Origin: an uncultured Gammaproteobacteria bacterium
GTDB taxonomy: Bacteria > Patescibacteriota > Microgenomatia > Levybacterales > UBA12049
DNA length: 64,000 nt
Direction of reading: 5' to 3'
Assembly (NCBI GenBank): GCA_964610465.1
Contig: CAZSWA010000005.1
Location: 8,456-72,455, forward strand
The translations under genes and the position numbers were made by a program. Below are positions 14,412 to 63,976 of the stretch, piece by piece; positions within the stretch are counted from its first letter, which is position 1, and each line of letters starts with the position of its first letter. The notes below the pieces were generated by a model. The model made no database searches. It saw only the letters and a list, made by a program, of their open reading frames with translations, and was not told where the DNA came from.

Positions 14412-15388
14412 TGAATTCAGTAGCTATGGATAACAATACAGTTCAACGGATAAAAGATATCATTGCAAAGGGTGAGAATCTCTCAATTGCGGTTGGGAAA
14501 AACCCTTCACTGGACGAGATGGCGGGAGCGCTATCTCTCTTTTTGGCCTTCAGAGAAGCAAATAAAAGAGTAAGTATTGCATGTCCAACAGACCCACTTG
14601 TTGAGATTTCCTCTCTTGTCGGAATTGACAAAGTCCAAAATAAACTCTCAGGAGATGGGGGAGATCTCACTGTTTCTTTTCCTTATCAGGAGGGAGAGAT
14701 AGAGAAGGTTTCCTACACTGTTGAAAATGGCTATCTCAATATTATTGTAAAAGCTGGCGAGCATGGACTTTCATTTGACGAACGGGATATTAAATATATC
14801 CGCGGTGGAGGATTAATTGATTTGCTTTTTATCGTTGGTACCCCAAGCCTTTCTGATCTTGAAGGATTATACGATGAAGAAAAATTCCGCGATACAACTG
14901 TTATCAATATCGACAATAAACAAAATAATCAAGGGTTTGGAGACGTAGTACTCGTATCTCCCAAATTCTCATCTGTGAGTGAACAGATTACCGATTTTAT
15001 CCTTTCTTTAGGTCTTCGAATTGATAAGGATACTGCACAAAATCTCTTAAGCGGTATTATACAGGCAACTGATAATTTTCAAAGCCCAAATACAAGTATG
15101 GTTGCATTTGAGATGTCAGCATTTCTCATGAGAAAAGGCGCACAAAGGCCAGGCGCTCGTGAACATCTTGAACAAAGAGAACAAAGACAACGTCCTCAAC
15201 TTTCTCAGAGGCAAAATCAACAGAGAAGGTTTGATGATACCAGACAACAGCATCAGTCTCAACCTCAACAGCAAGCTCAATCTAATCGACCTGCACCTGA
15301 AGAACCAGAAGAAAATCAACAAGATGAGGAAAATCCGCCATCTGACTGGCTGACTCCTAAAGTCTTTAAAGGCTCATCCAATGTCTAA
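14408..15388 (+). CDS. DHH-family (NrnA-like) protein with degenerate catalytic motifs and a Q/R-rich low-complexity C-terminal tail. Start overlaps the infB stop (ATGA).
   Basis: NrnA-like layout at the position NrnA/RbfA genes usually occupy after infB. Motif I reads KNPSLDEMAGALSL instead of HxNPDGDAxGS, and the DHH position reads IDNKQNNQGFGDVVLVSP. Confidence 0.4.
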   Translation: MMNSVAMDNNTVQRIKDIIAKGENLSIAVGKNPSLDEMAGALSLFLAFREANKRVSIACPTDPLVEISSLVGIDKVQNKLSGDGGDLTVSFPYQEGEIEKVSYTVENGYLNIIVKAGEHGLSFDERDIKYIRGGGLIDLLFIVGTPSLSDLEGLYDEEKFRDTTVINIDNKQNNQGFGDVVLVSPKFSSVSEQITDFILSLGLRIDKDTAQNLLSGIIQATDNFQSPNTSMVAFEMSAFLMRKGAQRPGAREHLEQREQRQRPQLSQRQNQQRRFDDTRQQHQSQPQQQAQSNRPAPEEPEENQQDEENPPSDWLTPKVFKGSSNV

Positions 15389-17985: not shown

Positions 17986-18161
17986 TTTAAAATTAAGAAG
18001 CATCCCACAGGCCTCTGCGAGGGATCTTCGAAGAATCAAGAAATAAGGAAATAAAATCGTAAACCCCAAATACCAGGCTCTAAATAAATTCGAAATTACA
18101 AAAAACAAATATAAACTCCATCTCTCTTTTGTCTTTTTATAAAATCATGTAATATATTATT

Positions 18162-35431: not shown

Positions 35432-38400
35432 GTGCCTGCCCAAGAGAGTTCAACGATGCCTAGGCAATCAGAAGTAAAAAACAACAAGACGAGTATAGTT
35501 AGACAAAACTGGGGAAAGACGTATTCAGTATTACCACCTCTTGATTTGTTGGAAGTACAAAGACAATCATATACATGGTTTGAAAATCATGGTATAAGAG
35601 AAGTACTGCAAGAAATTTCACCTGTTGATGATTTTACGGGCAAAAATTGGAGCCTTAGTTTTCATGAACACAAAATCGGCAAGCCTTCCATTACTCCAAA
35701 GACCGCACTTGCAAAAGGTCTCACCTACGATGCGCCTCTTACCGTCAAAGTTTCCCTCACCAATAAAAAAACCGGACACACAGAAACCACAGAAGTATTT
35801 TTAGGCGATATTCCTCAAATGACAGATAGAGGGACATTTATTGTCAATGGTATTGAAAGAGCTGTAGTAAATCAGCTTGTTCGTTCTCCTGGGGTTTTCT
35901 TCACCGGAAATCAAGATCCAATCACAGGCAAAACACTTTATTCTACAGAAATTCGTCCAATTCATGGTTCATGGCTTGAATTTTCAACTACAAGATACGG
36001 AACTATTACTGTCAAAATTGACAGAAGAAGAAAATTCTTAGTTACTACATTTTTACGCGCATTAGGACTTTCCGATAATGATGCAATCAAAGCAAAATTC
36101 CAGGAAGTCGAAGCAGGAGATAGAGCAGAATCATTTATTGAAAATACCCTTCAAAAAGATGAGACAGGGAGTGAGACAGAAGCAATTGTTGAGATATTTA
36201 AAAAAATGCATCCTGGAGAACCAATTGTCTTGGATAAAGTAAGAGAATACTTCACCAATCTTTTCTTTAACAACAGAAGATATGATTTGGGAGTTGTGGG
36301 AAGATACAAGATTAACAAGAGACTCAAATCAGTTCCTGGATTTAATTCCTCAGAAGAGAGAGTTTTAACCATTGATGATATTTTTGCAACAATTTCCTAT
36401 CTTATTATGCTTGAGCAAGGCCGTGGTGATGTCGATGATATTGATAGTCTTGCCAACAGACGTGTGAGAAGTGTTGGAGAACTCGTTACTATCAATGCCT
36501 TTAGAGTCGGAGTATTGAGAATTGAGAGAAGTATTAAAGAAAGAATGAGTCTTCTGCAGGCAGATGGTACCGTATCTGTTTCAAATCTTATTAATGCACG
36601 TCCTATCATGGCAGCAATTAATGAATTCTTTAGAACTTCACAACTTTCAACTATTCTTGATCAAACCAATCCGCTCTCAGAAATTGATAATTTAAACCGC
36701 TTAACTGTCATGGGAACCGGTGGTATTTCAAGAGAGAGAGCAGCCTTCTCAATTCGTGATATCAACAGCTCACAATATGGGAGAATTGACCCAATCAGAA
36801 GCCCAGAAGGTCCAAACATAGGACTTGTAACCTACATGTCACTTTATTCACGAGTTAACGATTACGGATTTCTTGAAGCACCATATAGAAAAGTAGAAAA
36901 AAGAAAAGTCGGAAATAAAGAGAAAGTATTTGTTACTGATGAAATTGTTTATCTTGATGCAGCTGATGAAAGAAGTAATTATATTACTCATGCAGGTATT
37001 ACTGTAGGTGACGATAACGAAATTCTCGATGAGAGAGTACCAGCACGCTACCATGGTGATTTTATGGAAGTTGATAGACAAATGATTAATTATATTGATG
37101 TTGTTCCACGACAAGTAGTTGGAACTTCTGCGTCTCTTATTCCTTTTATTGCTCATGATGAAGCAAACCGCGCACTCATGGGAACTCATATGCAATGTCA
37201 GGCAGTACCACTCGTGAAACCTTCAAGTCCAGTTGTAGGGACTGGAATGGAAACCACAATTTCTGAAGTAATGGGAAGAGTAGTAAAAGCACCATTTGAT
37301 GGAAAAGTAACCTTTGTTGATTCAGATAAAATAATTCTCGAAGGACAAAAAGGAGAAAAAGCGACTTTCTCTCTTGAAACATTCAGTAGAACTTCTCAAG
37401 CAACCTGTTATACCCAAAGACCACTTGTGAATGAAGGACAAATTGTCAAAAAAGGTGATGCGCTTATTGATGGTCCTTCCAGTCAAAATGGAGAACTCGC
37501 ACTTGGACAAAATCTTCTTATCGCGTATGCATCTCTTGACGGGTTAGGCTATGAAGATGCTATCGTTATTTCAGACAAGCTTGTCAAACAGGACGCGTTA
37601 TCATCAATTCATATTGAAAAATATGAAGCAGCAGTGGTTGAAACCAAACTTGGACCTGAGGAAACAACTCGAGATATTCCAAACATTTCAGAGGAAGATT
37701 TAGCCAACTTGGATGAGGAAGGAATTGTAGTTGTCGGAAGTGAAGTCGGTCCTGGAGATATATTAGTTGGTAAGATTGCGCCAAAAGGTGAAACAGAACT
37801 TACTGCAGAAGAAAGATTACTTCGCGCAATCTTTGGGGAACAAGCCCGTGAAGTACGGGATACTAGTCTTCGCATGCCACATGGTGAGCGTGGAACGGTA
37901 ATTAGTGTACAAATTCTTGATAGAAAAGAAGGCGATGAACTCGAGCCTGGAACTATTCGAAAAATTCTTGTAGAAGTTGCCCAATTCCGTCATGTAGTCG
38001 TAGGAGATAAACTTGCAGGACGACATGGCAACAAAGGTATTATTTCTCGTATTCTCCCAGTTGCTGATATGCCATACCTGACTGATGGAACTCCAGTTGA
38101 TATTGTTATTTCACCAATTTCAGTACTTGCTCGTATGAATTTAGGACAACTTCTTGAAGCACATCTTGGATGGGCTGCACAAAAATTGAATACAAAAATC
38201 GGTGTACCGGTATTTGAAAAAATAGATGAAGAGAAGATTGTTTCTCTCCTCACCCAGGCAGGACTTCCAGTCAATGGGAAAGCCCAACTTTTTGATGGAA
38301 GAACAGGAAGAGCATATGAAAATCCAGTTGTTGTCGGAATTGAATACATGATGAAACTTATTCACATGGTTGAAGATAAAACCCATGCACGTTCAACTGG

Positions 38401-38875
38401 TCCATACTCTTTGGTTACTCAGCAGCCACTTGGAGGAAAAGCGCAAATGGGAGGACAGAGACTTGGAGAGATGGAAGTATGGGCACTTGAAGCACATAGA
38501 GCACGATATATCTTGCAAGAAATGCTTACTATCAAATCAGATGATGTAGTCGGACGTGCCAAAGCATTTGAAGCAATTGTCAAAGGAACCGATATCCCAA
38601 CACCAAAAGTTCCTGAATCATTTAAAGTACTTATCAAAGAATTACAATCATTAGGTCTTAATGTCGTTCCAATGGGAGCAACGGTGTATAATGAGGAAAT
38701 CGAAGAGAAGGCAGAAGCACAGGCTGAAGCAGAAGGAGTACGTCAAGAGGCACAGCAATTGCAGGAAAGTTTAGAAGGCGGAAATGTTCCTGATGGTGCA
38801 ACAGAAGGTACATCTGAACCAGAGACAGTAGATTCTGAAACAACAGAAACAGAACCAGGGGAGGTAGCAGCATAA
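35432..38875 (+). CDS. rpoB: DNA-directed RNA polymerase subunit beta
   Basis: Full-length match to the conserved beta-subunit regions. Immediately followed by rpoC, overlapping as TAATG. Confidence 0.95.
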   Translation: MPAQESSTMPRQSEVKNNKTSIVRQNWGKTYSVLPPLDLLEVQRQSYTWFENHGIREVLQEISPVDDFTGKNWSLSFHEHKIGKPSITPKTALAKGLTYDAPLTVKVSLTNKKTGHTETTEVFLGDIPQMTDRGTFIVNGIERAVVNQLVRSPGVFFTGNQDPITGKTLYSTEIRPIHGSWLEFSTTRYGTITVKIDRRRKFLVTTFLRALGLSDNDAIKAKFQEVEAGDRAESFIENTLQKDETGSETEAIVEIFKKMHPGEPIVLDKVREYFTNLFFNNRRYDLGVVGRYKINKRLKSVPGFNSSEERVLTIDDIFATISYLIMLEQGRGDVDDIDSLANRRVRSVGELVTINAFRVGVLRIERSIKERMSLLQADGTVSVSNLINARPIMAAINEFFRTSQLSTILDQTNPLSEIDNLNRLTVMGTGGISRERAAFSIRDINSSQYGRIDPIRSPEGPNIGLVTYMSLYSRVNDYGFLEAPYRKVEKRKVGNKEKVFVTDEIVYLDAADERSNYITHAGITVGDDNEILDERVPARYHGDFMEVDRQMINYIDVVPRQVVGTSASLIPFIAHDEANRALMGTHMQCQAVPLVKPSSPVVGTGMETTISEVMGRVVKAPFDGKVTFVDSDKIILEGQKGEKATFSLETFSRTSQATCYTQRPLVNEGQIVKKGDALIDGPSSQNGELALGQNLLIAYASLDGLGYEDAIVISDKLVKQDALSSIHIEKYEAAVVETKLGPEETTRDIPNISEEDLANLDEEGIVVVGSEVGPGDILVGKIAPKGETELTAEERLLRAIFGEQAREVRDTSLRMPHGERGTVISVQILDRKEGDELEPGTIRKILVEVAQFRHVVVGDKLAGRHGNKGIISRILPVADMPYLTDGTPVDIVISPISVLARMNLGQLLEAHLGWAAQKLNTKIGVPVFEKIDEEKIVSLLTQAGLPVNGKAQLFDGRTGRAYENPVVVGIEYMMKLIHMVEDKTHARSTGPYSLVTQQPLGGKAQMGGQRLGEMEVWALEAHRARYILQEMLTIKSDDVVGRAKAFEAIVKGTDIPTPKVPESFKVLIKELQSLGLNVVPMGATVYNEEIEEKAEAQAEAEGVRQEAQQLQESLEGGNVPDGATEGTSEPETVDSETTETEPGEVAA

Positions 38876-41800
38876 TGAATTCAAGAAACAGTAAAAACAG
38901 CTTAACAAAAGATCTTAATATTTCCGACTTTAAGTCACTCAAACTTCTTTTGGCAAAGAAAGAGGATATCCTTTCATGGTCTTATGGTGAAGTGACCAAA
39001 CCTGAAACTATTAACTATAGAACCCTTAGACCTGAGAAAGATGGATTATTTGATGAAAGAATTTTTGGTCCAACCAAAGATTGGGAATGTTACTGCGGAA
39101 AATACAAGAGAATACGATACAGAGGTATTATCTGCGACAAATGTGGAGTTGAAGTTACTCTTTCCAGAGTGAGACGCGAAAGGCTGGGACATATTACGAT
39201 TGCATCTCCGGTTGCTCATGTGTGGTTCTTCAAAGGAGCATCATCTGCAATGTCACTTCTTTTGGATATTCAGCAAAAGAGCTTGGAATCAATCATTTAT
39301 TATGCATCATATCTAATTACCAAAATTGATGAAGACAAAAAAAGAGAGGCGCTTGATATATTTTCTCAAAATATTGAAAAGAGAAAAGAAGCGCTCCAAA
39401 AACGTGGAAAGGATGATGAAGAAAAAGTTACCAAAGAAGCTGATGAAAAAGCAAAAGATATAAAAGCAAGCAAAACAAGTGCCGAACAAAAACAACTTAT
39501 CTTACAGGAAATTGAACTCGCCAAACGTCAAAAACACACTCAACTTCAAGAATCTCTTGAAACCGAATCAAAGAAGATAGATGAAATTGCTGATACCTTT
39601 ACCAAGCTTCTCAAAGGCTTGCGCGTTGGAAGTGTGCTTTCAGAAGATGAATACTTCAAACTTCTTGAATATGATATTCCAGTCTTCTTTACCATCAAAA
39701 CCGGTTCTGAAGCACTCTATGAAGTAATCAATAATCTTGATTTATCAACTCTTATTGCGAACTTGAGAAGCGAATCTGAGAAAGCATCAGGACAAAGATA
39801 TCTAAGAATTGTCAAAAGACTCAGACTTATTGAAAACATGAGAAAAGCCGGAGTGACGCCATCCGCAATGATTCTTTCTGTACTTCCGGTTATCCCGCCA
39901 GATCTTCGACCAATGGTACAACTCTCAGGCGGAAGATTTGCAACATCTGATTTAAATGATTTATATAGAAGAGTTATCAATAGAAATAACCGTCTGAAAC
40001 ATCTTTTAGCACTTGGTGCGCCTGAAATCATTCTTCGCAATGAGAAAAGAATGTTACAAGAATCAGTTGATGCCCTTATTGATTCAACCCAAAGAGGAGG
40101 AACTGCAACTGCGTCACCACTTCGCTCACTTTCTGACATGCTTCGAGGGAAACAAGGACGATTTAGACAAAATCTTTTGGGTAAAAGAGTTGATTATTCA
40201 GGCCGTTCAGTTATCGTAGTTGGACCAGAACTTAAGCTTTCCCAGTGTGGATTGCCAAAGGAAATGGCGCTTGAAATGTTTAAACCATTTGTTCTTCGTG
40301 AAGTAATTGTTAGAGGACTTGCGACCAATATCAAATCAGCCAAGCGCTATATTGAGAAAAGACCACCGGAAGTATTTGATATTCTTGAAGAAATCACAAA
40401 GAACCATCCGGTACTCTTAAATCGTGCACCCACTCTTCACAAACTTGGTATACAGGCATTCTATCCAGTGCTTATTGAAGGTGCAGCAATTCAACTTCAT
40501 CCTTGTGTCTGTAACGGATACAACGCAGACTTTGATGGAGATCAAATGGCCGTCCATATTCCACTTTCAACAAAAGCGCAGGAAGAAGCAGCAGAACTCA
40601 TGATGCCACGCAACAATCTCTTAAAGCCAGCTGATGGAAGTCCAATTACTCTGCCAAACAAGGAAATGGCACTTGGAATTTATTACTTGACTACTCTTGA
40701 TGAATCTTTGAGAAAAAGTGAAGAGGAACAAAAGTACTTTAGCAATATGAACAACGCACTTTTGGCATTTGATTTAGGAAAAGTAGGTCTTCGGGAACCA
40801 ATCAAAGTACGTATCGGACAAAACGGCACTGGCAAACTTATTGAGACCAATATCGGAAGACTTCGCTTTAACGAACTTCTTCCTGAGGATTTTGGTTTTA
40901 TCAATGAAAGTATTAACGCAGCAGGAATCAAGAAAATTATCACGCGAGCAATGAAAACCTACTCTTCACATGAGGTAGCAGAACTTATTGATAAAGTGAA
41001 AAATCTTGGATTCTATGGCGCAACTATCTCAGGAGTCAGTGTATCAGTATTTGATAATGAAATTATTCCTGAAAAAGACAAAATGATAGAAGATGCAGAG
41101 CAAAAAGTAGCAGGAATTGATGATGAATACCAGCAAGGACTTATCACTCTTGAAGAGAAGAAAAGACTTTCAAATGAAGTCTGGCTTAAAGTTACCGATG
41201 CAATTTCCAGTCTTACGTGGAAGACACTCAAGCCTTCCAATCCAATAAAAATCAGTATTGATTCCGGAGGATCTCGTGCAGGTATTGAACAGCTCAAACA
41301 GCTTTCTGCAATGAGAGGACTTATTATTGACCCTCTTGGAAAGATTGTTGAGCTTCCAATTAAATCCAATTTCCGTGAAGGTCTCTCAATCTTTGAGTAT
41401 GTAGCATCAGCCAGAGGTTCCAGAAAAGGACTTACTGATTCAGCACTTAAGACCGCAAACGCAGGATATCTCACTCGAAGACTCGTTGATGTTACCCATG
41501 ATGTGATTGTCAGAGAAGAGGATTGCGGCACAACTGAAGGAGTTACTATTCCATACACTGAAAAAGATAGAACATCAGCCTTTGCGGATAGATTAATAGG
41601 AAGAGTTTTGGCAGCCAATGCGGTTTCTTCAAAAACCAAGAAGATTGTATTAAAAGCAGGAGAAGAAATTAATGAAGAAACTGCAGCGTTTATATCTGCA
41701 AGTGATGTCCAGGAAGTAGTCGTACGTTCTCCTCTTACGTGTAAACTGACGTACGGTATTTGTGTAGCATGTTATGGATGGGATTTTTCAATCAAGAAGA

Positions 41801-42684
41801 AAGTAGATTTGGGTGTTCCAGTTGGAGTAGTTGCAGCCCAAAGTATTGGAGAGCCAGGTACACAGCTTACTATGCGTGTTCGACATTTCGGAGGAGTTGT
41901 TATGTCTGATGTGACACAAGGTCTTCCACGTGTTGAGGAACTCTTTGAAATGAGAACTCCCAAGAATCTGGCTCCTGTATCTGAGATTACCGGAAAAGTA
42001 AAGATTGAAAAAACGGATGAAGGATACAGAATTCAGGTACGAAACGCGCGTATTAAACCAATTGAAGTGCAAGAATATTTTGTACCTCTTTCTGCAACAC
42101 TTTCAGTAGCAGACGGTGACGAAATAACAGCCGGTACTCCACTTGCTGAAGGATATCTTGATCCAAAGGAAGTTCTAAAAATTGGCGGTCTTACTATGGT
42201 ACAAAGATATCTGGTTACTGAAATTCAAAAAGTATATGAGTCCCAGGGAATTGCAATTAATGACAAACATTTTGAAGTAATTATCCGCAAAATGTCTGAT
42301 AAAGTAATTGTTGAGAGTGTTGGTGATACGTCACTTATTCCTGGAGATTTTGTCAGTAAAGCACGCTTTGAGGAAATGAATGCAGAAGTTCTCTCAGAAG
42401 GTGGAGAACCAGCAACCGGAAGACAAGTAGTATTGGGTATTACCAAAGCTGCATTATTCTCAGATAGCTGGCTTTCAGCAGCTTCATTCCAGGAAACAAC
42501 CAAAGTTTTGACCGAAGCAGCACTTGAAGGACGCGAAGATAAATTGGTTGGACTTAAGGAAAATGTTATTATTGGAAGACTTATCCCGGTTGAAAGTAAA
42601 AATCTTTTACCTGAGCTTCAACCTGAGTCTGAACAAAGTAGTGACACACCGTCTGAGCCTGCCAGTGCCAGTGAGATAGTATAA
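38875..42684 (+). CDS. rpoC: DNA-directed RNA polymerase subunit beta'
   Basis: Zinc-binding CxxC...CxxC N-terminus, catalytic NADFDGD motif and the conserved trigger-loop region. Confidence 0.95.
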   Translation: MNSRNSKNSLTKDLNISDFKSLKLLLAKKEDILSWSYGEVTKPETINYRTLRPEKDGLFDERIFGPTKDWECYCGKYKRIRYRGIICDKCGVEVTLSRVRRERLGHITIASPVAHVWFFKGASSAMSLLLDIQQKSLESIIYYASYLITKIDEDKKREALDIFSQNIEKRKEALQKRGKDDEEKVTKEADEKAKDIKASKTSAEQKQLILQEIELAKRQKHTQLQESLETESKKIDEIADTFTKLLKGLRVGSVLSEDEYFKLLEYDIPVFFTIKTGSEALYEVINNLDLSTLIANLRSESEKASGQRYLRIVKRLRLIENMRKAGVTPSAMILSVLPVIPPDLRPMVQLSGGRFATSDLNDLYRRVINRNNRLKHLLALGAPEIILRNEKRMLQESVDALIDSTQRGGTATASPLRSLSDMLRGKQGRFRQNLLGKRVDYSGRSVIVVGPELKLSQCGLPKEMALEMFKPFVLREVIVRGLATNIKSAKRYIEKRPPEVFDILEEITKNHPVLLNRAPTLHKLGIQAFYPVLIEGAAIQLHPCVCNGYNADFDGDQMAVHIPLSTKAQEEAAELMMPRNNLLKPADGSPITLPNKEMALGIYYLTTLDESLRKSEEEQKYFSNMNNALLAFDLGKVGLREPIKVRIGQNGTGKLIETNIGRLRFNELLPEDFGFINESINAAGIKKIITRAMKTYSSHEVAELIDKVKNLGFYGATISGVSVSVFDNEIIPEKDKMIEDAEQKVAGIDDEYQQGLITLEEKKRLSNEVWLKVTDAISSLTWKTLKPSNPIKISIDSGGSRAGIEQLKQLSAMRGLIIDPLGKIVELPIKSNFREGLSIFEYVASARGSRKGLTDSALKTANAGYLTRRLVDVTHDVIVREEDCGTTEGVTIPYTEKDRTSAFADRLIGRVLAANAVSSKTKKIVLKAGEEINEETAAFISASDVQEVVVRSPLTCKLTYGICVACYGWDFSIKKKVDLGVPVGVVAAQSIGEPGTQLTMRVRHFGGVVMSDVTQGLPRVEELFEMRTPKNLAPVSEITGKVKIEKTDEGYRIQVRNARIKPIEVQEYFVPLSATLSVADGDEITAGTPLAEGYLDPKEVLKIGGLTMVQRYLVTEIQKVYESQGIAINDKHFEVIIRKMSDKVIVESVGDTSLIPGDFVSKARFEEMNAEVLSEGGEPATGRQVVLGITKAALFSDSWLSAASFQETTKVLTEAALEGREDKLVGLKENVIIGRLIPVESKNLLPELQPESEQSSDTPSEPASASEIV

Positions 42685-42761
42685 TACATGCTCATAGTTT
42701 GCCTCTTTTTTCTCTAGTTTTAAGTATCGAATGAGGCAAAATATGATATAATACGAGAATT

Positions 42762-43208
42762 ATGCCAACATTATCACAGTTAGCAAAAAGAGGCAGAAAA
42801 AGAAGAACCAAGAAGTCACGTTCGATGGCTTTACGAAGGCTCTTCAATGCAAAAGATAGAGAATACAAGGACCTTAGTGCTCCACAAAAACGTGGTGTGG
42901 TAACGCTTGTCAAAACCATGACTCCTAAGAAACCAAATTCAGCACTTCGCAAAGTCGCAAGAGTCAAGCTTTCCAACAAAATGGAAGTTACGGCCTACAT
43001 TCAAGGAGTTGGACATTCGCTTTCAGAACACGGTATAGTCCTTGTTCGCGGAGGAAGGGTCAAAGATTTACCAGGAGTGAAATATCATTTGGTACGTGGC
43101 AAATTTGATTTGCTCGGAGTTGAAGGACGCAAAACTTCACGAAGTACCTATGGTACCAAATTACAAAAAGGGGGAGGCGCAGGAGCTAAAGCTGCTCCAG
43201 CTGCATAA
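42762..43208 (+). CDS. rpsL: 30S ribosomal protein S12, with a Gly/Ala/Lys-rich C-terminal extension
   Basis: [13 protein letters not shown]...[18 protein letters not shown]...[19 protein letters not shown]. An extra ~20 aa ([15 protein letters not shown]) at the C-terminus. Confidence 0.95.
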
Positions 43209-43215
43209 GTAACAT

Positions 43216-43689
43216 ATGAGACACGCAAAAGTAGCAAAAAGAAAAATTGAAGGAGATGTAATGTACAACAATCTTCTCGTGGCCAAGCTTATCAACTATG
43301 TTATGGAAAGCGGCAAAAAGACAGTTGCACAAGAACAAGTCTACAAAGCATTCCAACTCTTAACAGATAAAGGTCAAGATCCTCTTAAAGCCTTTGAAAA
43401 AGCGATTCAAAATGTCGGTCCAAAAGTAGAAGTAAGAGCACGACGTGTCGGCGGAGCCAATTATCAGGTTCCTGTTGAAGTTCGATACGAAAGACGTATT
43501 GCCTTGGCACTTCGATGGATGCTTGAGGCAGCACGCAAACGATCAAACAAGGATTTCCATACCTTCTCAGAAAAACTCGCAGCAGAGATTCTTGATGCCA
43601 ATAACAATATGGGAGAAGCAATCAGAAAACGTGATATTACCCTCAAACAGGCAGAAGCCAATCGCGCCTTTGCACATTTTAGATGGTAG
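43216..43689 (+). CDS. rpsG: 30S ribosomal protein S7
   Basis: Matches S7 along its whole length (ARRVGGANYQVPVEVRYERRIALALRWMLEAARKRS). rpsL-rpsG synteny. Confidence 0.95.
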   Translation: MRHAKVAKRKIEGDVMYNNLLVAKLINYVMESGKKTVAQEQVYKAFQLLTDKGQDPLKAFEKAIQNVGPKVEVRARRVGGANYQVPVEVRYERRIALALRWMLEAARKRSNKDFHTFSEKLAAEILDANNNMGEAIRKRDITLKQAEANRAFAHFRW

Positions 43690-43852
43690 ATTTGCAAAGA
43701 TCTTCGACCTTCGCACACTTCAGGTGGTAAACCTCATTATATATAGTATCTCATCTATGACCCTATAGTATTGACAAATTGTCCAGTTTATGATATGTTT
43801 TATACTGTACGTTGACAATGTGCGGTGTGAAGTACCCTTAAAGGAGGGGAAA

Positions 43853-44560
43853 ATGTTGGCCGGTACGTTTGGCTCTGACAGTTCTGTAGCGCGTATTGAA
43901 GCTGCTCTCAAGGTAGTTTCAGATCGAGTCGAAGAAGAGATAGGGTTATCCTATCTTGGAGTAGGCCGTCGCCGTCGTTTTCAAGACGGGCACACAGAAC
44001 CAGATTACCTCTGGGAAATTTGTACATACTGTGGCTACCATGGCCATGGTATAGCTTTCTCAGGAAGCAAGGAGAGCCGTGATTGGACGATGTATAACCT
44101 AAGGCGCCAGCACGTCAGGGAAAATCCCTGGTGTGAACACCCATTGAGTGTGAGCGATTTTAGCATAGGTTGGATTGCATGTCCTCAACTCTCTCACGAA
44201 GAGGCAGAAGGAGTGCACCGACCTATGGCGGAGTACATCTATGGTATGGATAATGTTTGGGGGGTCACGGAAGACCTCTATAAGGCTTATGCTCGGCATC
44301 TTACAAGATGCCAGGCATGCCAACAAGCATACCATACTGAAGTAGTGGACGTTATAGACAACAGCGAGGAGTTCCTCTTCCTCAAAATGGCAGAAGAAGA
44401 TTGCCTTGAAGCTGCTGAAGAAGCAGCTAAGGAAGAGCGTCGTCTTCAAAAAGAGGAGGAGATACTCATGGATTCACCGGAGGACATGTTTCCTTTTGCA
44501 CATAGCAATCGGAAAAGCAAACAAAAGCCACAAAAAGCTCGACAAAAGAGCTTGAGGTAA
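43853..44560 (+). CDS. Orphan Cys/His/Trp-rich hypothetical protein in a GC-rich segment, with an acidic/basic C-terminal tail. Possibly a zinc-binding protein of foreign origin. The start is probably the ATG at 43853 behind a strong AGGAGG RBS, not the upstream ATG at 43790 used in the ORF track.
   Basis: Local GC is visibly higher than the flanks. AAAGGAGGGGAAAATG lies upstream. CxxC/HxH clusters (CTYCGYHGHG, WCEHP, CQACQQAYH). It sits where fusA would normally follow rpsG. Confidence 0.5.
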   Translation: MLAGTFGSDSSVARIEAALKVVSDRVEEEIGLSYLGVGRRRRFQDGHTEPDYLWEICTYCGYHGHGIAFSGSKESRDWTMYNLRRQHVRENPWCEHPLSVSDFSIGWIACPQLSHEEAEGVHRPMAEYIYGMDNVWGVTEDLYKAYARHLTRCQACQQAYHTEVVDVIDNSEEFLFLKMAEEDCLEAAEEAAKEERRLQKEEEILMDSPEDMFPFAHSNRKSKQKPQKARQKSLR

Positions 44561-44733
44561 CACCAACAACCGCACAAAGGAATGTGCATAAAGCACGGTA
44601 AGGGCGAAAGGATTCGCCCATTTGACTCATTCACCCTCATTTATTGCGAGGGTTAAAATGGAAAGAGCCATTGGGCAAACATCATTTCATCAAAACCCCC
44701 AACGTGCTTTTTCCATGGGAAAAATTTGTTTAC

Positions 44734-44845
44734 ATTCTAAATCATAAATGCCAAATACCAAATTACAAAAAACAAATACAAAATTATTTGTTTGAAATTT
44801 GGAATCTTGAAATTTATTTGGATTTTGGGATTTGTAATTTAGAAT
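44734..44845. repeat. Cluster of nested/adjacent inverted repeats in an AT-rich spacer: attctaaat/atttagaat, aaattacaaa/tttgtaattt and aaacaaata/tatttgttt.
   Basis: Read directly: 44734-44742 vs 44837-44845, 44760-44769 vs 44831-44840, 44770-44778 vs 44785-44793. Confidence 0.5.
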
Positions 44846-44913
44846 TTTATTTAACCCCTTGATTCTTTACTGAGATGACAAAGAAGAGGGTTAAAGCAAC
44901 AACGTGGAGAATA

Positions 44914-45552
44914 TTACTGAATAGTTATTCCGAGGATTGTGTCGCCGATTTGGATTTTATTTACTACATCCATTCCTGATTTTACTATTCCAAAATTGGT
45001 ATATTGTTTATTCAGCCAGGAGGCATCGGTTTTGGTAATGAAAAATTGCGCATCATTTTGTGTTTTGCCGTCTCCTCTACTGGCAACACCAAGAGAACCG
45101 ACTACAAATGGTTTGCTATTAAATTCGACAGGCATACTACCACCGCCTGTGCCATTGCCAAGCGGGTCACCGCCCTGGATTACCCAATCTTCAACGCGAT
45201 GGAAAGTAAGGTTGTTATAGAATCCGCTTTTGGCTTTATTCACAAAATTTTTGACAGTGTTAGGAGCATCTTTTGGATAGAGTTCAAGTATGATATCTCC
45301 TTTTGCGGTTTTGATAGTTGCAGTTGTTGCATTCACATGAGCTATTGTAGCAGAAGAAGGGGTAGGTGTAAAAGCAGCAGATGTCGAAGATGGACTTATT
45401 TTAAGAGAAATGCCTGATGGAACAATGGAAAGTTTTGAAAGTTTATCCAAAGCACTATTTTGAGAAGGACTTTTGGCAGGTTGGAAAGAATAATAGAGAG
45501 CGGCACATACAATTATTACAATAGCAATAAGTGCAGCATAGAATAGTTTCAT
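44914..45552 (-). CDS. Cyclophilin-type peptidyl-prolyl cis-trans isomerase, membrane-anchored or secreted (paralogue 1)
   Basis: Cyclophilin signature NNLTFHRVEDWVIQGGDPLGNGTGGGS. N-terminal hydrophobic segment. Confidence 0.85.
   Translation of the reverse strand: MKLFYAALIAIVIIVCAALYYSFQPAKSPSQNSALDKLSKLSIVPSGISLKISPSSTSAAFTPTPSSATIAHVNATTATIKTAKGDIILELYPKDAPNTVKNFVNKAKSGFYNNLTFHRVEDWVIQGGDPLGNGTGGGSMPVEFNSKPFVVGSLGVASRGDGKTQNDAQFFITKTDASWLNKQYTNFGIVKSGMDVVNKIQIGDTILGITIQ
45174..45237. repeat. ~65-bp tract identical to 45937-46001 inside the two tandem cyclophilin genes (recent duplication or gene conversion).
   Basis: ccctggattacccaatcttcaacgcgatggaaagtaaggttgttatagaatccgcttttggcttt is present at both positions. 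Confidence 0.8.
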
Positions 45553-45677
45553 AGGATTTTTATTGTATCATGTTGCCGATGATTTTCAACCCTCCTTCGC
45601 TAAAGTTTCGGAAGGGCAAGGAGTTTTGTTCTCAGGCTGAAAAATTGTCAAAATAGAATTTTTTGAATTTTGACTAG

Positions 45678-46382
45678 TTATTCTACCGTAATGCCTAGAA
45701 TTTTATCTCCGATTTGAATCTTATTTACCACATCCATACCGCTTGTGACCTGGCCAAAATTGGTATATTGCTGATTAAGCCAGGATGCGTCTTGTTTAGT
45801 GATAAAAAACTGTGAGTCATTGGAAACTTTGATATCGCTTCCACGAGCTACACCCAACGAACCAGTGATAAACGGCACATTGTTAATCTCTGTTGGCATA
45901 AGGCCGCCGCCTGTGCCGTTACCTAATGGGTCGCCACCCTGGATTACCCAATCTTCAACGCGATGGAAAGTAAGGTTGTTATAGAATCCGCTTTTGGCTT
46001 TGATAATAAAATTCTTCACTGTATTGGGAGCGTCTTTCCCGTCAAGCGTTAAGACTATATCTCCTTTGCTTGTTTTAATCGTTGCTGAATAAGAAGCTTT
46101 AATACCATCTTCAACTCCAAATGTTGGTGCAATACCAGTTGGAGTTGGCGGAAGTGCCTGTCTATTTGTTTCTTGTCCTTGTTTTTGGGGAAATGCCTGC
46201 TGCAGTTTCATTTTATCAGCACCTAGAGTCGGTATTTCATAGGGTTGTGAGAGAGATGCGCGCAGTGAATTTCCTTGAGTAGAAAAGTAAATACCTACAG
46301 AAACCAATGCCAAAAGCACAAAAAGCAGAATATACGATTTATTCATTACATAGTATTTTAGCATAAAGAAAGATTTTGCCAA
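45678..46382 (-). CDS. Cyclophilin-type peptidyl-prolyl cis-trans isomerase, membrane-anchored or secreted (paralogue 2)
   Basis: Same cyclophilin signature. Shares a ~65-bp stretch of identical DNA with paralogue 1. Confidence 0.85.
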   Translation of the reverse strand: MAKSFFMLKYYVMNKSYILLFVLLALVSVGIYFSTQGNSLRASLSQPYEIPTLGADKMKLQQAFPQKQGQETNRQALPPTPTGIAPTFGVEDGIKASYSATIKTSKGDIVLTLDGKDAPNTVKNFIIKAKSGFYNNLTFHRVEDWVIQGGDPLGNGTGGGLMPTEINNVPFITGSLGVARGSDIKVSNDSQFFITKQDASWLNQQYTNFGQVTSGMDVVNKIQIGDKILGITVE

Positions 46383-46439
46383 CAGTTTTACTAAGTCCTA
46401 AATTCGTACTTCTTTTGACTTTCTGGTACAATAAGGAGC

Positions 46440-48176
46440 ATGAATAGGCTTGAATTAATACGAAATTTTGCAATTATTGCCCATATCGATCATGGCAAAT
46501 CAACTTTGTCTGACAGGTTCCTGGAGATTACCAATACAATTCCAAAAGATAAATTACAGGAGCAATTTCTTGATCAAAATATTATCAGTAGAAAACGGGG
46601 AATTACCATAAAGCTCGCACCGGTACGCATGAATTATATTTTTGATGGTCAGACCTATACGCTTAATCTTATCGATACGCCAGGTCATGTTGATTTTTCT
46701 TATGAAGTATCACGGACTCTGGCAGCATGCGAAGGAGTTGTGTTATTGGTAGATGCAACGCAAGGAATTCAGGCGCAAACTGTCGCACATTACTTTGCCG
46801 CCAAAAAAGAAAACCTTGTGATGATACCAGTTATCAATAAAATTGATTTACCAAATGCTCAAACTCAGGCTGTGATAAAAGAGTTGCATGATGTGTTTGG
46901 ATTTGAAGAGGAAGAAATTCTTCTTATCTCTGCCAAAACAGGTGAAAATGCTGAAAAATTATTACAAACTATTATCCATAAAATTCCAGCTCCCAAAGGC
47001 TCAAGTGATGCGCCGTTGCGCGCACTTATTTTTGATGCTGTTTATGATGAGTATAGAGGAGTTATTGCCTATATACGGGTAATTGACGGAGAGGTAAAAA
47101 CGGGAGATAAGATTGAATTTTATCAAAATAACATTGGAGCAGATGTTACAGAAGTAGGTTTTTTTACTCCTTTTTTGAAAAAGTCAGATAGGCTTGCAAC
47201 AGGGGAAATAGGATATATAGTAGCAGGTATAAAAGATATTCGGCAAACAAGAGTAGGAGATACACTTATGCTGCAAAATCATCCTACACAACCTCTGCCA
47301 GGCTACACGACTCCTAAGCCAATGGTTTTTTTTGGTATGTACCCAAAGTCAGCAGATGATTATGTGAGTCTTAAAGAATCTCTTGGGAAACTTACGCTCA
47401 ATGATACCTCGCTTGCTTACACAGATGAGTATTCTGCGTATCTGGGAAGCGGCTTTCGGGTCGGATTCTTGGGATTGCTACATGCTGAGATTATAAAAGA
47501 ACGGCTCAAACAGGAGTTTGGATTGGATTTACTTTTGACTATGCCACAAGTACTCTATGAGAGGAAAGACGGTGAGAGAATATTTGAACCATATATGATG
47601 TTGCATATTTATACCCCAAAGGAGTATGTAGGAGGTATTATGACAGTTTGTCAAAAAAGAAAAGGAATGCTTATTGATATGGCTTATCATGATACCTATG
47701 CAGTACTTTCATATGAAATTCCTTACACAATGTTTATTAGAGGACTCGCTGCAGAACTAAAATCCATATCAGCCGGATTTGCCAGTATTGATTATGAACT
47801 TACGGACTATAAAGAAGCAGATCTGGTTTCTCTTGAAATTCGTATCAATGACAATCCAATTGATGTATTATCTGAACTTGTGTATAGGGATGAAGCAGCA
47901 TATATTGCCCGTATAAAAGCGACCAAATTAAAAGAAGTATTGCCGCGGCAACAGGTACGTCAGATTATTCAAGCATTGGTGAATAATACTATTGTTGCTA
48001 GAGAAGAAATTCCGCCATTTCGAAAAGACGTATTAGCCAAAATGAGCGGAGGAGATAGAACACGGAAAGATAAGCTACTTGAAAAACAGAAAAAAGGCAA
48101 AGCCAAAATGCAATCAACTGCAAAAGTATCATTACCGCAAGAGGCACTGTTTTCTTTGATTAGTGATTCTAAGTAA
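46440..48176 (+). CDS. lepA: Elongation factor 4 (LepA)
   Basis: N-terminus IRNFAIIAHIDHGKSTLSDRFLE, DTPGHVDFSYEVSR and a LepA-specific C-terminal domain. Confidence 0.9.
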   Translation: MNRLELIRNFAIIAHIDHGKSTLSDRFLEITNTIPKDKLQEQFLDQNIISRKRGITIKLAPVRMNYIFDGQTYTLNLIDTPGHVDFSYEVSRTLAACEGVVLLVDATQGIQAQTVAHYFAAKKENLVMIPVINKIDLPNAQTQAVIKELHDVFGFEEEEILLISAKTGENAEKLLQTIIHKIPAPKGSSDAPLRALIFDAVYDEYRGVIAYIRVIDGEVKTGDKIEFYQNNIGADVTEVGFFTPFLKKSDRLATGEIGYIVAGIKDIRQTRVGDTLMLQNHPTQPLPGYTTPKPMVFFGMYPKSADDYVSLKESLGKLTLNDTSLAYTDEYSAYLGSGFRVGFLGLLHAEIIKERLKQEFGLDLLLTMPQVLYERKDGERIFEPYMMLHIYTPKEYVGGIMTVCQKRKGMLIDMAYHDTYAVLSYEIPYTMFIRGLAAELKSISAGFASIDYELTDYKEADLVSLEIRINDNPIDVLSELVYRDEAAYIARIKATKLKEVLPRQQVRQIIQALVNNTIVAREEIPPFRKDVLAKMSGGDRTRKDKLLEKQKKGKAKMQSTAKVSLPQEALFSLISDSK

Positions 48177-62278: not shown

Positions 62279-63976
62279 TTATCTTGAAGATTTTACCGTA
62301 ATACTTTTAGATGCTGTATTGCCTGTTGGATCAAATGCTCTTGCAGTAATCGTATAAGTAATACTGGATTTATTAGGGACATTCCATCCACAATTATATG
62401 GTGATAGTATGTCAGTACATAAGAGAGTTCCATTTACCAGTATTTGTACTTGTGTAACATTGACATCATCAGTTGCAGAGACTTTTATTACTATTTTTGT
62501 ACCTTTTGTCACAATACTATTATTTGTAGGATTGGTAATAGCTACTATTGGTGGTGTTGTGTCAGGAGGAATCGGAGTAGGTGTTGGCGTATTTGTCGGC
62601 ATTGGTGTACTAGTTGGAGTATTTGTTGGGATAGGTGTAGGAGTGAAAGTTGGAGTATTTGTTGGGATAGGTGTAGGAGTGAAGAATGGTGTTGGAGTCG
62701 GAATACCATTAGTACAATATCCAGGGGGTGGAGTTTGGATACCATTTGTATAGTTATAGAGTGTATCTAAGGATGGCCAATTCGCACTATTATTAAGTAC
62801 ATTCGCATACCATTCAATTGCTGATGTACGGTAACAATAAGCTAATTGAATAGTGGCCGGTAAATCGGAAGTAGTTAGACCGGATTGTGTCTGCCATTGA
62901 ATGAAATAGTCTGTTGGCCAGGAAGTTCCATCAGTTGCTTGTTGACCTGCATGCGCATAAGCATATTGGATACTGGAACAGGTCTGAGCAAAATCACACA
63001 CTCCTCCTGATAAACTCTGCGTTCCAAAGCCAAACCCTTTCTCAAGTGCCCAGAAACTTGCTGTTTGCTGCCAGCTCTCACCACTTACTCCTGTTACCGG
63101 GTCAACCCCACTATTTTTTGCTCCCCAGAAGCTATTAATCCCAAAAACTGTCTGAGTGGCACCATGATGTGTCCCTTTCCCAAACTGGCTAAAATCATTT
63201 TGACAAGTCGGTAAGGCATAATGCTGCCAGTTAGTAATATACTTATCCCAAGTGAACCCAAAAGTTGTATTGAAGTAATTCCATCGAGTATTTTGTGGAC
63301 CGTGACGAAGAGGGAATGATTCTCCGCCAAAACCAATAGCGCATCTGTCATACAATAATCTATCTTGATAATTCTGTGGAAGTGTTGCTATCCAAGATGC
63401 AACCTGGTCGACAAAATTCGTTTTCCAATCTTGTTGCCAAGTACCAGACCAATAGGCTGGTACTGCAGAGCCATCGTCTGTATCGCAAAAAAGTGCAGAC
63501 TGACTTGCTAATTTTTGTACTTCATAATCAGGGATTTCTTGTACTCCCCAGGAAGTATCTGAAGTACAGCCCGTGCTTTGTCCATTGTCTGCAATATCTT
63601 CTGTAACAATTGACCAAAATATAGGATGATTTGCACTAGTCATCAATTTATCAAGTTCATAACGATACATTGAAAAATCATAAACTCCAGGAGAAGGGTT
63701 TACTCTCGCCCAAATAACTTTCATCATAGCATAATTTCCGTCAGGATTAGTAAGAATTGCTTGATTAAAGTTCAAAGGATCTGTTGAAGCTGAATCAAAC
63801 TGTCCATTTACTTGAATAGGAGTCTGGGGATTCGAGCTTGCTGCTGCTCTTAAGGAAAGAGGTTTATTTCCATGAAAAGTACGCATTAAGAAAAGTATCG
63901 TGAGAGAAAAAAACGCAACAATAAAAAAACTTGACAGATATTTAAAGTTTATATTATCTTTTTGAGGTTTCTTCAC
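62279..63976 (-). CDS. Secreted or membrane-anchored protein with a large N-terminal domain of unknown function (possibly carbohydrate-active), a tandem P/T-rich linker and a C-terminal Ig-like domain. The N-terminus lies close to the window edge.
   Basis: N-terminal TM/signal segment FIVAFFSLTILFLM. PT repeats TPTPIPTNTPTFTPTPIPTNTPTSTP. C-terminal beta-rich domain VTKGTKIVIKVSATDDVNVTQVQILVNGT. Confidence 0.6.
   Translation of the reverse strand: MKKPQKDNINFKYLSSFFIVAFFSLTILFLMRTFHGNKPLSLRAAASSNPQTPIQVNGQFDSASTDPLNFNQAILTNPDGNYAMMKVIWARVNPSPGVYDFSMYRYELDKLMTSANHPIFWSIVTEDIADNGQSTGCTSDTSWGVQEIPDYEVQKLASQSALFCDTDDGSAVPAYWSGTWQQDWKTNFVDQVASWIATLPQNYQDRLLYDRCAIGFGGESFPLRHGPQNTRWNYFNTTFGFTWDKYITNWQHYALPTCQNDFSQFGKGTHHGATQTVFGINSFWGAKNSGVDPVTGVSGESWQQTASFWALEKGFGFGTQSLSGGVCDFAQTCSSIQYAYAHAGQQATDGTSWPTDYFIQWQTQSGLTTSDLPATIQLAYCYRTSAIEWYANVLNNSANWPSLDTLYNYTNGIQTPPPGYCTNGIPTPTPFFTPTPIPTNTPTFTPTPIPTNTPTSTPMPTNTPTPTPIPPDTTPPIVAITNPTNNSIVTKGTKIVIKVSATDDVNVTQVQILVNGTLLCTDILSPYNCGWNVPNKSSITYTITARAFDPTGNTASKSITVKSSR
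62560..62720. repeat. Tandem ~33-bp DNA repeats encoding the P/T-rich linker of ORF 62279..63976
   Basis: gttggagtatttgttgggataggtgtaggagtgaa occurs twice in tandem, with related flanking copies. Confidence 0.7.

Follow-up and report, generated by a model that had tools for sequence, protein, structure and literature searches.

An orphan gene with a Cys/His-rich product and an over-folded coding RNA in a variable slot downstream of rpsG in Patescibacteria

In the zinc-binding anti-sigma (ZAS) domains, also called class I anti-sigma domains (ASDs), the motif H-x3-C-x2-C spans helix 2 and helix 3 (PMC7406223, PMC2877774), and most zinc-type cytoplasmic ASDs are soluble (PMC7406223). Many of the large noncoding RNAs (ncRNAs) of bacteria, in turn, were found by searching GC-rich intergenic regions (PMC6429828, PMC11109978). 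Here we describe a gene that shares features with both of these groups. It lies at 43853-44560 on the + strand of a 64,000-nucleotide stretch of contig CAZSWA010000005.1 (hereafter the window), directly after the rpoB-rpoC-rpsL-rpsG array, and is called the orphan gene throughout, since a single distant homologue was found for it among approximately 15 billion proteins. On balance we favor the view that it is a real, stand-alone accessory gene, probably foreign, which is neither a remnant nor a replacement of fusA-tuf and which encodes a zinc-type protein on a structured mRNA.

The open reading frame (ORF) is a real protein gene, as supported by its canonical Shine-Dalgarno (SD) sequence and ATG, by its length, and by a homologue (P0002) with matching Cys and His residues. 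The SD sequence, AGGAGG, is located at 43842-43847, 5 nt upstream of the ATG; an alternative reading of 256 amino acids (aa) from an ATG at 43790 has no SD sequence. The longest ORF in 5000 dinucleotide shuffles had 223 codons (mean 86), and none of the 5000 reached the length of the orphan. An earlier note on this DNA, made from the letters, had described the same SD sequence, a spacer of ~160 bp after rpsG and an ORF of 236 aa; the spacer measures 163 nt (43690-43852, +) and the ORF is confirmed, but its product has 235 aa, the 236 codons including the stop. Three mutually independent assemblies from Logan, the longest of 45.7 kb, contain the rpsG-ORF-cyclophilin junction at 100% identity, and the arrangement is therefore not a one-off misassembly.

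The composition of the ORF is foreign to its surroundings. Its GC content is 0.479, compared with 0.377 for the window; only 0.17% of the 708-nt windows have a GC content of at least 0.479, and the window-wide maximum (0.486) overlaps the ORF, so that the contrast claimed from visual impression in the earlier note holds when actually computed. GC at third codon positions (GC3) is 0.436, against 0.20-0.34 in 35 other ORFs and against the 0.273 ± 0.027 expected if the same protein were written in the codon usage of the window, and the codon-usage log-likelihood, a check that the earlier note had proposed, places the orphan as the most deviant gene (z -7.5), the next one standing at -3.2. From the window to the orphan, the share of AGA among Arg codons falls from 45% to 6%, while Ser AGC rises from 9% to 47%, Leu CTC from 11% to 44%, Lys AAG from 18% to 55%, and Ile ATA from 23% to 56%; the shift is more than a simple gain in GC. 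The GC content at first and second codon positions (GC1 and GC2) is likewise shifted, as is the amino-acid composition, with 3.0% Cys compared with 0.4% in the window proteome (7.5 times), 4.3% His compared with 1.5% (approximately three times), and 2.1% Trp compared with 0.7%.

The sense-strand RNA of the orphan gene is over-folded, with synonymous sites encoding most of the fold. The predicted folding energy of the ORF is -261 kcal/mol, compared with -208.9 ± 6.4 kcal/mol in dinucleotide shuffles (z -8.2), and every 300-nt window of the + strand within 43800-44550 has a z of -4.6 to -5.4, the window at 44700 having -2.3. The minus strand gives -0.3 to -1.0 over the region's first 450 nt, the flanking genes are close to 0, and the 416 windows in the rest of the 64 kb have a mean of -0.12 (sd 1.18) and a minimum of -4.0. 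Shuffling synonymous codons, with the protein and the codon counts kept, left a z of -6.2 (n=60) and -6.4 (n=100) for the sense strand, about twice the antisense signal (-3.2); the native ORF is 47 kcal/mol more stable than these shuffles, none of which comes within 26 kcal/mol, and six control genes or segments range from +1.4 to -1.7. The GC3 at paired and unpaired positions does not differ from that of synonymous shuffles, a test that proved uninformative. In the minimum free energy (MFE) structure of 43790-44900 there are approximately 19 mostly local hairpins, with 65% of the bases paired, G-U pairs making up 49 of 359, a median span of 23 nt, and spans of more than 200 nt in 6.7% of the pairs. 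The hyper-structured RNA, delimited by the 300-nt windows, the shuffles and the helix list, comprises leader, ORF and 3' untranslated region (43800-44850, +) and coincides with a plausible transcript of ~1.05 kb. The Rfam 15 covariance models gave no match at E<=1 in 42600-46500. The earlier note had missed this hyper-structure, which offers a second contribution to the odd composition that is independent of horizontal transfer. Judging by these folding models, we consider it fairly likely that the RNA structure has a function. Two other places in the window stood out in the same scan: three adjacent 300-nt windows at 13801-14700 (+), covering the end of a GTPase-like ORF (12921-14411) and the start of an overlapping one (14408-15388), are moderately over-folded (z -3.7, -3.5 and -2.95) without an Rfam match, and 63301-63600, inside an ORF of the minus strand (62279-63976), is over-folded on both strands (z -4.0 and -3.4) and is the sole window outside the orphan locus to reach -4.

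The signals around the ORF fit a single-gene unit. A promoter scan found two sigma-70-like sites in the upstream spacer, TTGACA-17-TATGTT with a TGn element (43771-43799) and TTGTCC-16-TATACT (43779-43806), and no terminator-like site follows rpsG in this spacer; the gene is transcribed either from its own promoter or by read-through from rpsG. In the 5' leader, a 15-bp stem-loop (43799-43831, +), present in the MFE structure of 43790-44900 and in the centroid structure, holds five G-U pairs and would therefore form on the + strand RNA only, and in the MFE structure a small hairpin, CCCUU/GAGGG (43835-43848, +), half-buries the SD sequence. At -16.1 kcal/mol, the translation-initiation region (-30..+33) folds more stably than that of any other gene among the 35 compared (mean -6.1 ± 3.6), and the upstream spacer as a whole is not over-folded (z +0.27). 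A type I toxin-antitoxin-like mRNA, in which a hydrophobic toxin of less than 60 aa would be expected, was considered in view of the partly sequestered SD sequence and rejected, as the product here is a hydrophilic protein of 235 aa with an isoelectric point (pI) of 5.3.

Downstream of the ORF, a 3' spacer of 353 nt (44561-44913, +) is shared with the convergent cyclophilin gene and, as described earlier, is AT-rich and full of hairpins (GC 0.31-0.32; fold z -4.7, a stability matched by 0/100 shuffles). From inverted repeats and predicted helices, hairpins lie on the + strand at 44602-44619 (GGGCGAA/UUCGCCC), 44633-44653, 44658-44716, and 44850-44895, and the inverted repeats, the fold and the sequence together define a long imperfect AT-rich hairpin at 44734-44853 (+), with arms 44734-44763 and 44816-44845, followed by TTTATTTA. 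This hairpin with its TTTATTTA is probably the intrinsic terminator of the + strand transcript; it is not listed by the consensus terminator scan, because the latter demands at least three G-C pairs. A repeat check of the AT-rich palindrome showed that just a 19-nt core recurs, once, at 18093-18111. This core, AAATTACAAAAAACAAATA, stands beside a CCAAATACCA motif, and its second copy is intergenic (18063-18111 of the window), so that it may be a recurrent AT-rich terminator or an intergenic element of this genome. The inverted repeat TTTAACCC...GGGTTAAA (44850-44895) was also compared informally with the R''/R' consensus, as a possible attC site of an integron cassette, and the reading was dropped: the site is single, the gene may have its own promoter, and no integron platform is present.

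An exhaustive HMMER scan of 1.84 billion representative proteins returned one homologue of the orphan protein, P0002 (185 aa; library-wide E 4e-4, pairwise E 3e-12), which is 31% identical over residues 45-160. A word-indexed search of 5.8 billion clusters with the orphan protein found nothing but itself, the two-protein profile found no members in these clusters beyond the same pair, profile scans of the IMG/VR and JGI metagenome contigs gave no further family member, and the protein library including Logan assemblies of public sequencing runs contained no relative other than P0002. Pfam, NCBIfam, PHROGs, and PADLOC had no significant match, the sole weak family match being a zf-PHD-like one below cutoff (E 0.007), and a sequence search of the PDB with the two-sequence profile yielded nothing at E<=10. 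The orphan status claimed in the earlier note therefore stands, save for this one distant relative. The P0002 gene is located on a 4.6-kb contig (L085), where an M48 peptidase gene and the MurT and GatD genes precede it, the contig stopping 72 nt past it; it has its own promoter-like site, SD sequence and terminator-like hairpin, and it is compositionally ordinary in its contig (GC 0.409 vs 0.407). The family is real and tiny, with two members and without a conserved gene neighborhood, and excess folding, sought in the P0002 gene and in the slots of the relatives described below, was absent in both. Elsewhere on the same contig, L085:151-600 (-), across the intergenic gap at 294-463, has fold z values of -4.7 and -5.3 without an Rfam match and may be an unannotated structured RNA.

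The orphan protein is hydrophilic and soluble, and its layout, taken from low-confidence AlphaFold2 (AF2) models, consists of an N-terminal helix (~9-30) with an RRRR patch, a Cys/His core (~45-165), an acidic helix (~165-215), and a basic tail (218-235). The Cys/His clusters and the charged tail that the earlier note had pointed out are there: C57xxC60, H63xH65, W-C94-E-H96-P, and C153xxC156, and an acidic stretch at 161-215 before the basic tail; P0002 also runs on into an acidic stretch and a basic C-terminal tail. Conserved in P0002 are C57, C60, H87, P92, C94, H115-E-E-A, Y128, Y130, and H149-L-x-x-C153-x-x-C156-x-Q-A-Y. Each of the five core Cys in P0002 has its match in the orphan (C57, C60, C94, C153, and C156), the first pair being CxC in P0002 vs CxxC in the orphan, and H87, H115 and H149 are matched by His of P0002. 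The eight candidate metal ligands kept in both proteins (C57, C60, H87, C94, H115, H149, C153, and C156) are enough for two tetrahedral zinc sites, and we predict from the sequences that the orphan protein quite probably has two Zn(II) sites. Zinc motifs of the HNH, SWIM and DksA types were dropped by eye, as their spacings do not fit.

The second half of this signature recalls the ZAS motif, which is present in both members as H149-LTR-C153-QA-C156 in the orphan and H-LRQ-C-PT-C in P0002. The helices predicted by AF2, at low confidence, at 115-131, 136-152, and 154-168 fit its position between helix 2 and helix 3, and in hhalign residues 139-162 fall exactly on the motif as it occurs in five ZAS sequences validated by Pfam (P 0.001), a match limited to 24 columns around the motif and with a probability of 21.6%. 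The fourth zinc ligand of ZAS domains lies in helix 1, about 25 residues before the motif His (RslA uses His25/His50); in the orphan, H122 occupies -27 but P0002 does not conserve it, and the conserved H115 is at -34 in the orphan and at -37 in P0002. Several observations speak against membership of the ZAS family. Pfam zf-HC2 (PF13490, gathering threshold 22.2 bits) does not match the orphan at E<=10 or P0002 at E<=0.01, while scores of 24.9-40.6 bits are reached in that library by the five reference sequences; the candidate domain begins at about residue 110 of 235 and not at the N-terminus; and no sigma-factor gene adjoins either the orphan, whose neighbors are rpsG and the cyclophilin gene, or P0002, next to GatD. 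That the orphan protein works like a ZAS-type zinc or redox switch without being a member of the family seems to us unlikely.

The position of the gene is better understood from its relatives. The earlier note had stated that rpsG is normally followed by fusA and tuf, and of the 59 loci fetched with S7 as a probe whose downstream sequence reached 2.5 kb or more, 54 have fusA starting at most 400 nt after rpsG. All five exceptions are Patescibacteria-type loci. In L005 (S7 73% identical) the slot (cargo L005:4314-6059) holds a HicB-like ORF of 84 aa (PF15919, 28 bits), a protein of 419 aa with multiple transmembrane segments and no Pfam match, and a cyclophilin gene on the minus strand; in L006 (Saccharimonadales, S7 71%) it holds a LanC-like gene (PF05147) and a radical-SAM gene of 609 aa on the minus strand (L006:6485-12083), possibly a cluster for a ribosomally synthesized and post-translationally modified peptide (RiPP). 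L007 (S7 63%) has ~500 nt (L007:723-1223), a cyclophilin gene (-), and then fusA; its slot has a slightly raised GC content (0.437), and the sole ORF of at least 90 aa (601-987) begins inside rpsG. Gaps of 639 nt in L009 (S7 56%) and of 448 nt in L053 (S7 55%) precede fusA. In L005 and L007 the slot is likewise bounded by cyclophilin orthologues, and at the nucleotide level the cyclophilin gene alone is conserved between the window and the slots of the relatives, from all five of which the orphan gene is absent. The interval between rpsG and cyclophilin acts as a variable cargo slot in this Saccharimonadia-like Patescibacteria lineage. Since fusA is already off rpsG in L005, L006 and L007, the orphan did not displace fusA-tuf; of the idea that an acquired insertion occupies the place of fusA-tuf in a core operon, the foreign composition and the absence from the slot of relatives are borne out, and the displacement is not. 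Neither fusA nor tuf was found anywhere in the window, where a tblastn search with EF-G matched only lepA (46440-48176) and a GTPase at 12978-13313, and the orphan ORF has no NCBIfam or Pfam GTPase match that would make it a translational GTPase of the EF-G/EF-Tu type. Two further observations concern these loci: lepA sits beyond the cyclophilin genes of the window where L007 has fusA, so that the translational-GTPase neighbor differs between both genomes, and the contig of L005 (DASQPC010000080.1) is labeled Candidatus Methylomirabilota, although its rpoC is 76% identical to that of the window at the nucleotide level, its S7 73% identical, and its gene order Patescibacteria-like; it is probably a mis-binned Patescibacteria contig.

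Because neither the composition nor the codon dialect is that of the host, horizontal acquisition is favored, and going by sequence we find such an origin rather likely. In the scenario that we propose, the slot between rpsG and the convergent cyclophilin gene would already have lost fusA before the orphan gene was acquired horizontally from an unknown donor, with the trace of its vehicle now gone. The protein would carry a first zinc site, made of C57, C60, H87, and C94, on a beta-hairpin and a helix, and a second one, made of H115 (or H122), H149, C153, and C156, on a helix-helix-helix unit with HxxxCxxC, and it would most likely act by binding a protein or nucleic-acid partner, non-enzymatically and in a zinc-dependent, possibly redox-sensitive manner. 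Its transcript of ~1.05 kb would be full of local sense-strand hairpins that half-bury the ribosome-binding site and would end in the AT-rich terminator hairpin, the RNA structure stabilizing the mRNA and throttling or gating the translation of the foreign protein. From the data above we infer the transfer, the binding of zinc and of a partner, and the part played by the RNA structure, and several points weigh against them. No integrase, flanking direct repeats, target-site duplication, or tRNA was found at the locus and no donor was identified; the closest relatives are distant (S7 at most 73% identical), which makes the absence of the orphan from them weak evidence on its time of arrival; and selection for RNA structure could itself skew codon usage and so weaken the case for transfer. 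The zinc sites are deduced from an alignment of two sequences only, and the AF2 models made from it are unusable (predicted local distance difference test, pLDDT, 45.8 for the full length and 50.1 for the core), a Foldseek search of the PDB with these low-pLDDT models giving a best E of 2.1 and no usable fold. As for the RNA, the structure is a thermodynamic prediction on one sequence, with no nucleotide-level relatives for covariation, and the gene of the homologue is unstructured.

It is conceivable that the codon oddity is not a mark of transfer at all, and that the orphan is a native, fast-evolving, lineage-specific gene whose GC and codon usage owe their oddity to selection on the fold of the mRNA. 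Patescibacteria commonly carry orphan genes, synonymous codons are arranged in a way that is clearly non-random for folding, mobility genes and repeats are missing from the flanks, and P0002 is compositionally ordinary at home. However, GC1, GC2 and the amino-acid composition are shifted too, changes such as those in ATA, GCT and CGT do not simply add G-C pairs, GC3 at paired positions behaves as in synonymous shuffles, and none of the three nearest genomes has the gene, so that we regard a native origin as unlikely. If, instead, the primary product were a structured RNA of ~1.05 kb, with the ORF secondary or both functional, the locus would carry the classic signature of a large ncRNA, a GC-rich island that folds strand-specifically within an AT-rich genome, of the sort that the searches of GC-rich intergenic regions cited above have yielded (PMC6429828, PMC11109978). 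The strong strand bias of the 300-nt windows (about -5 on the + strand across 43800-44550, about 0 to -1 on the minus strand over the first 450 nt), the z of the ORF, the survival of the structure under synonymous shuffling, and the fit of the folded region to the inferred transcript ends all suit this possibility; the lack of an Rfam family even at E<=1 and of nucleotide-level relatives for covariation, the support for the ORF from shuffles, from the Cys/His conservation in P0002 and from the canonical SD sequence, and the homologous gene in L085, whose ordinary folding shows that excess structure is not a family trait, make it distinctly doubtful. More improbable still, in our opinion, is a bifunctional gene, in which an RNA selected at synonymous sites would serve as scaffold, decoy or sensor and also as mRNA for a family with two zinc sites, or an endogenized copy derived from a structured RNA replicon.

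A true zinc-binding anti-sigma factor sequestering a sigma factor and encoded beside rpoBC would account for the HxxxCxxC motif at a predicted helix-helix junction in both members, for its alignment by hhalign and for the solubility of the protein, a property of most zinc-type cytoplasmic ASDs (PMC7406223). We hold it to be very improbable, considering the failure of zf-HC2 even at E<=10 when five references score well above its threshold, the low hhalign probability over so few columns, the internal position of the domain, the displaced upstream ligand (-34/-37 instead of ~-25), and the want of a sigma gene beside either locus. The earlier note had suggested a phage-, plasmid- or defense-derived gene, or a selfish zinc-finger gene, and a moron of this kind would agree with a compositional outlier that stands alone as one gene, may have a promoter and a terminator of its own, and occupies a slot where L005 has a HicB-like antitoxin gene. 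Nevertheless, PHROGs and PADLOC gave 0 matches, blastn against INPHARED, tblastn against PLSDB, and IMG/VR gave none, there are no partner genes, and P0002 is found among housekeeping cell-wall genes (MurT/GatD); this suggestion has fared worst, and we give it hardly any credence. We therefore retain the reading of an accessory, probably foreign, protein-coding gene.

Regarding the neighboring genes, Pfam and NCBIfam place rpoB at 35432-38875, rpoC at 38875-42684, and rpsL at 42762-43208 (+), and rpsG (43216-43689, +; TIGR01029, 187.8 bits, cutoff 135.85; Pfam Ribosomal_S7) closes the array as the upstream neighbor of the orphan. Downstream, the slot is bounded by a convergent cyclophilin-type peptidyl-prolyl isomerase (PPIase; 44914-45552, -; PF00160, E 6.9e-36), followed by a second, tandem copy (45678-46382, -), by lepA (EF4; +; TIGR01393, 728 bits), and, beyond it, by a PKD-domain protein and then groES-groEL. 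No tRNA genes (by a tRNA scan) and no Rfam matches at gathering thresholds were found in the whole window. The two PPIases, a gene that is single-copy in L005 and L007, are 55% identical in protein and ~73% in DNA, yet they share one exact 65-nt stretch (45173-45237 = 45937-46001), inside which the Logan contigs end, at 45202 and 45972; this identity reflects a join made by the assembly at the repeat or else a recent event of gene conversion. In codon usage the second copy is the most deviant gene of the window after the orphan (z -3.2). The product of rpsL, at 148 aa, exceeds its 124-position model, residues 1-136 spanning model positions 1-123, which implies an internal insertion, and it carries a Gly/Ala-rich C-terminal extension that is shorter in L005 and L006.

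The orphan gene adds one more piece of Patescibacteria dark matter in the form of a gene, and with it a new family of two members with an eight-ligand Cys/His signature that includes an anti-sigma-like HxxxCxxC, encoded beside the genes for RNA polymerase and ribosomal proteins in an organism of which very few regulators are known. The junction between rpsG and fusA, nearly universal elsewhere, is broken in this lineage and has been made into a cargo slot. The coding region is among the most over-folded mRNAs likely to be met, with a z of about -8, and of about -6 under synonymous permutation; if the structure is functional, it would be a natural case of strong RNA-level selection laid over a protein code. 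By the same token, 'foreign' codon usage calls for caution, as it may partly mirror RNA structure rather than horizontal transfer.

Compared with known systems, the orphan shares with the class I ZAS proteins (RsrA, RslA, ChrR, RsiW; PF13490) the H-x3-C-x2-C motif kept in both family members, a hydrophobic or aromatic residue at +4 after it, a predicted helix-to-helix junction, an upstream helix with a His, and solubility, but its motif is at 149-156 of 235 instead of near the N-terminus, its upstream His is spaced by 34-37 rather than ~25 residues, it fails zf-HC2, it has no adjacent cognate sigma gene, and it possesses an extra N-terminal CxxC...H...C module. Like the large GC-rich ncRNAs (OLE, GOLLD, ROOL, HEARO, and raiA), it forms a ~1-kb GC-rich island with strong strand-specific predicted folding in an AT-rich genome; unlike them, it contains a supported ORF with an SD sequence, has no Rfam match or related copies for covariation, and is a string of local hairpins instead of a conserved multi-domain fold. 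Obelisks are also structured RNAs of ~1 kb with one ORF of ~200-235 aa without known homologues (rod-like, with Oblin-1; circular RNA genomes lacking a counterpart in DNA), whereas the orphan is embedded in chromosomal DNA in three independent assemblies, is not rod-like, and no ribozyme was found in it; an Obelisk-like replicon was rejected, given the median pair span of 23 nt, the contiguity of the segment with rpsG and PPIase DNA, and the failure of the protein library with its Logan assemblies to yield any relative besides P0002. The closest likeness is to the ORFan accessory genes of variable chromosomal slots, with which the orphan has in common atypical GC content and codon usage, the lack of annotated homologues, a single-gene organization with its own expression signals, and a slot that differs between related genomes; it departs from them in showing no visible mobility vehicle, in lying directly after the rpoBC-rpsLG core array, and in an mRNA whose degree of structure far exceeds what ordinary acquired genes show. 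An accessory orphan in a variable slot is a known kind of gene, and what is unusual about this one is the combination of a conserved two-site Cys/His signature with an over-folded mRNA.

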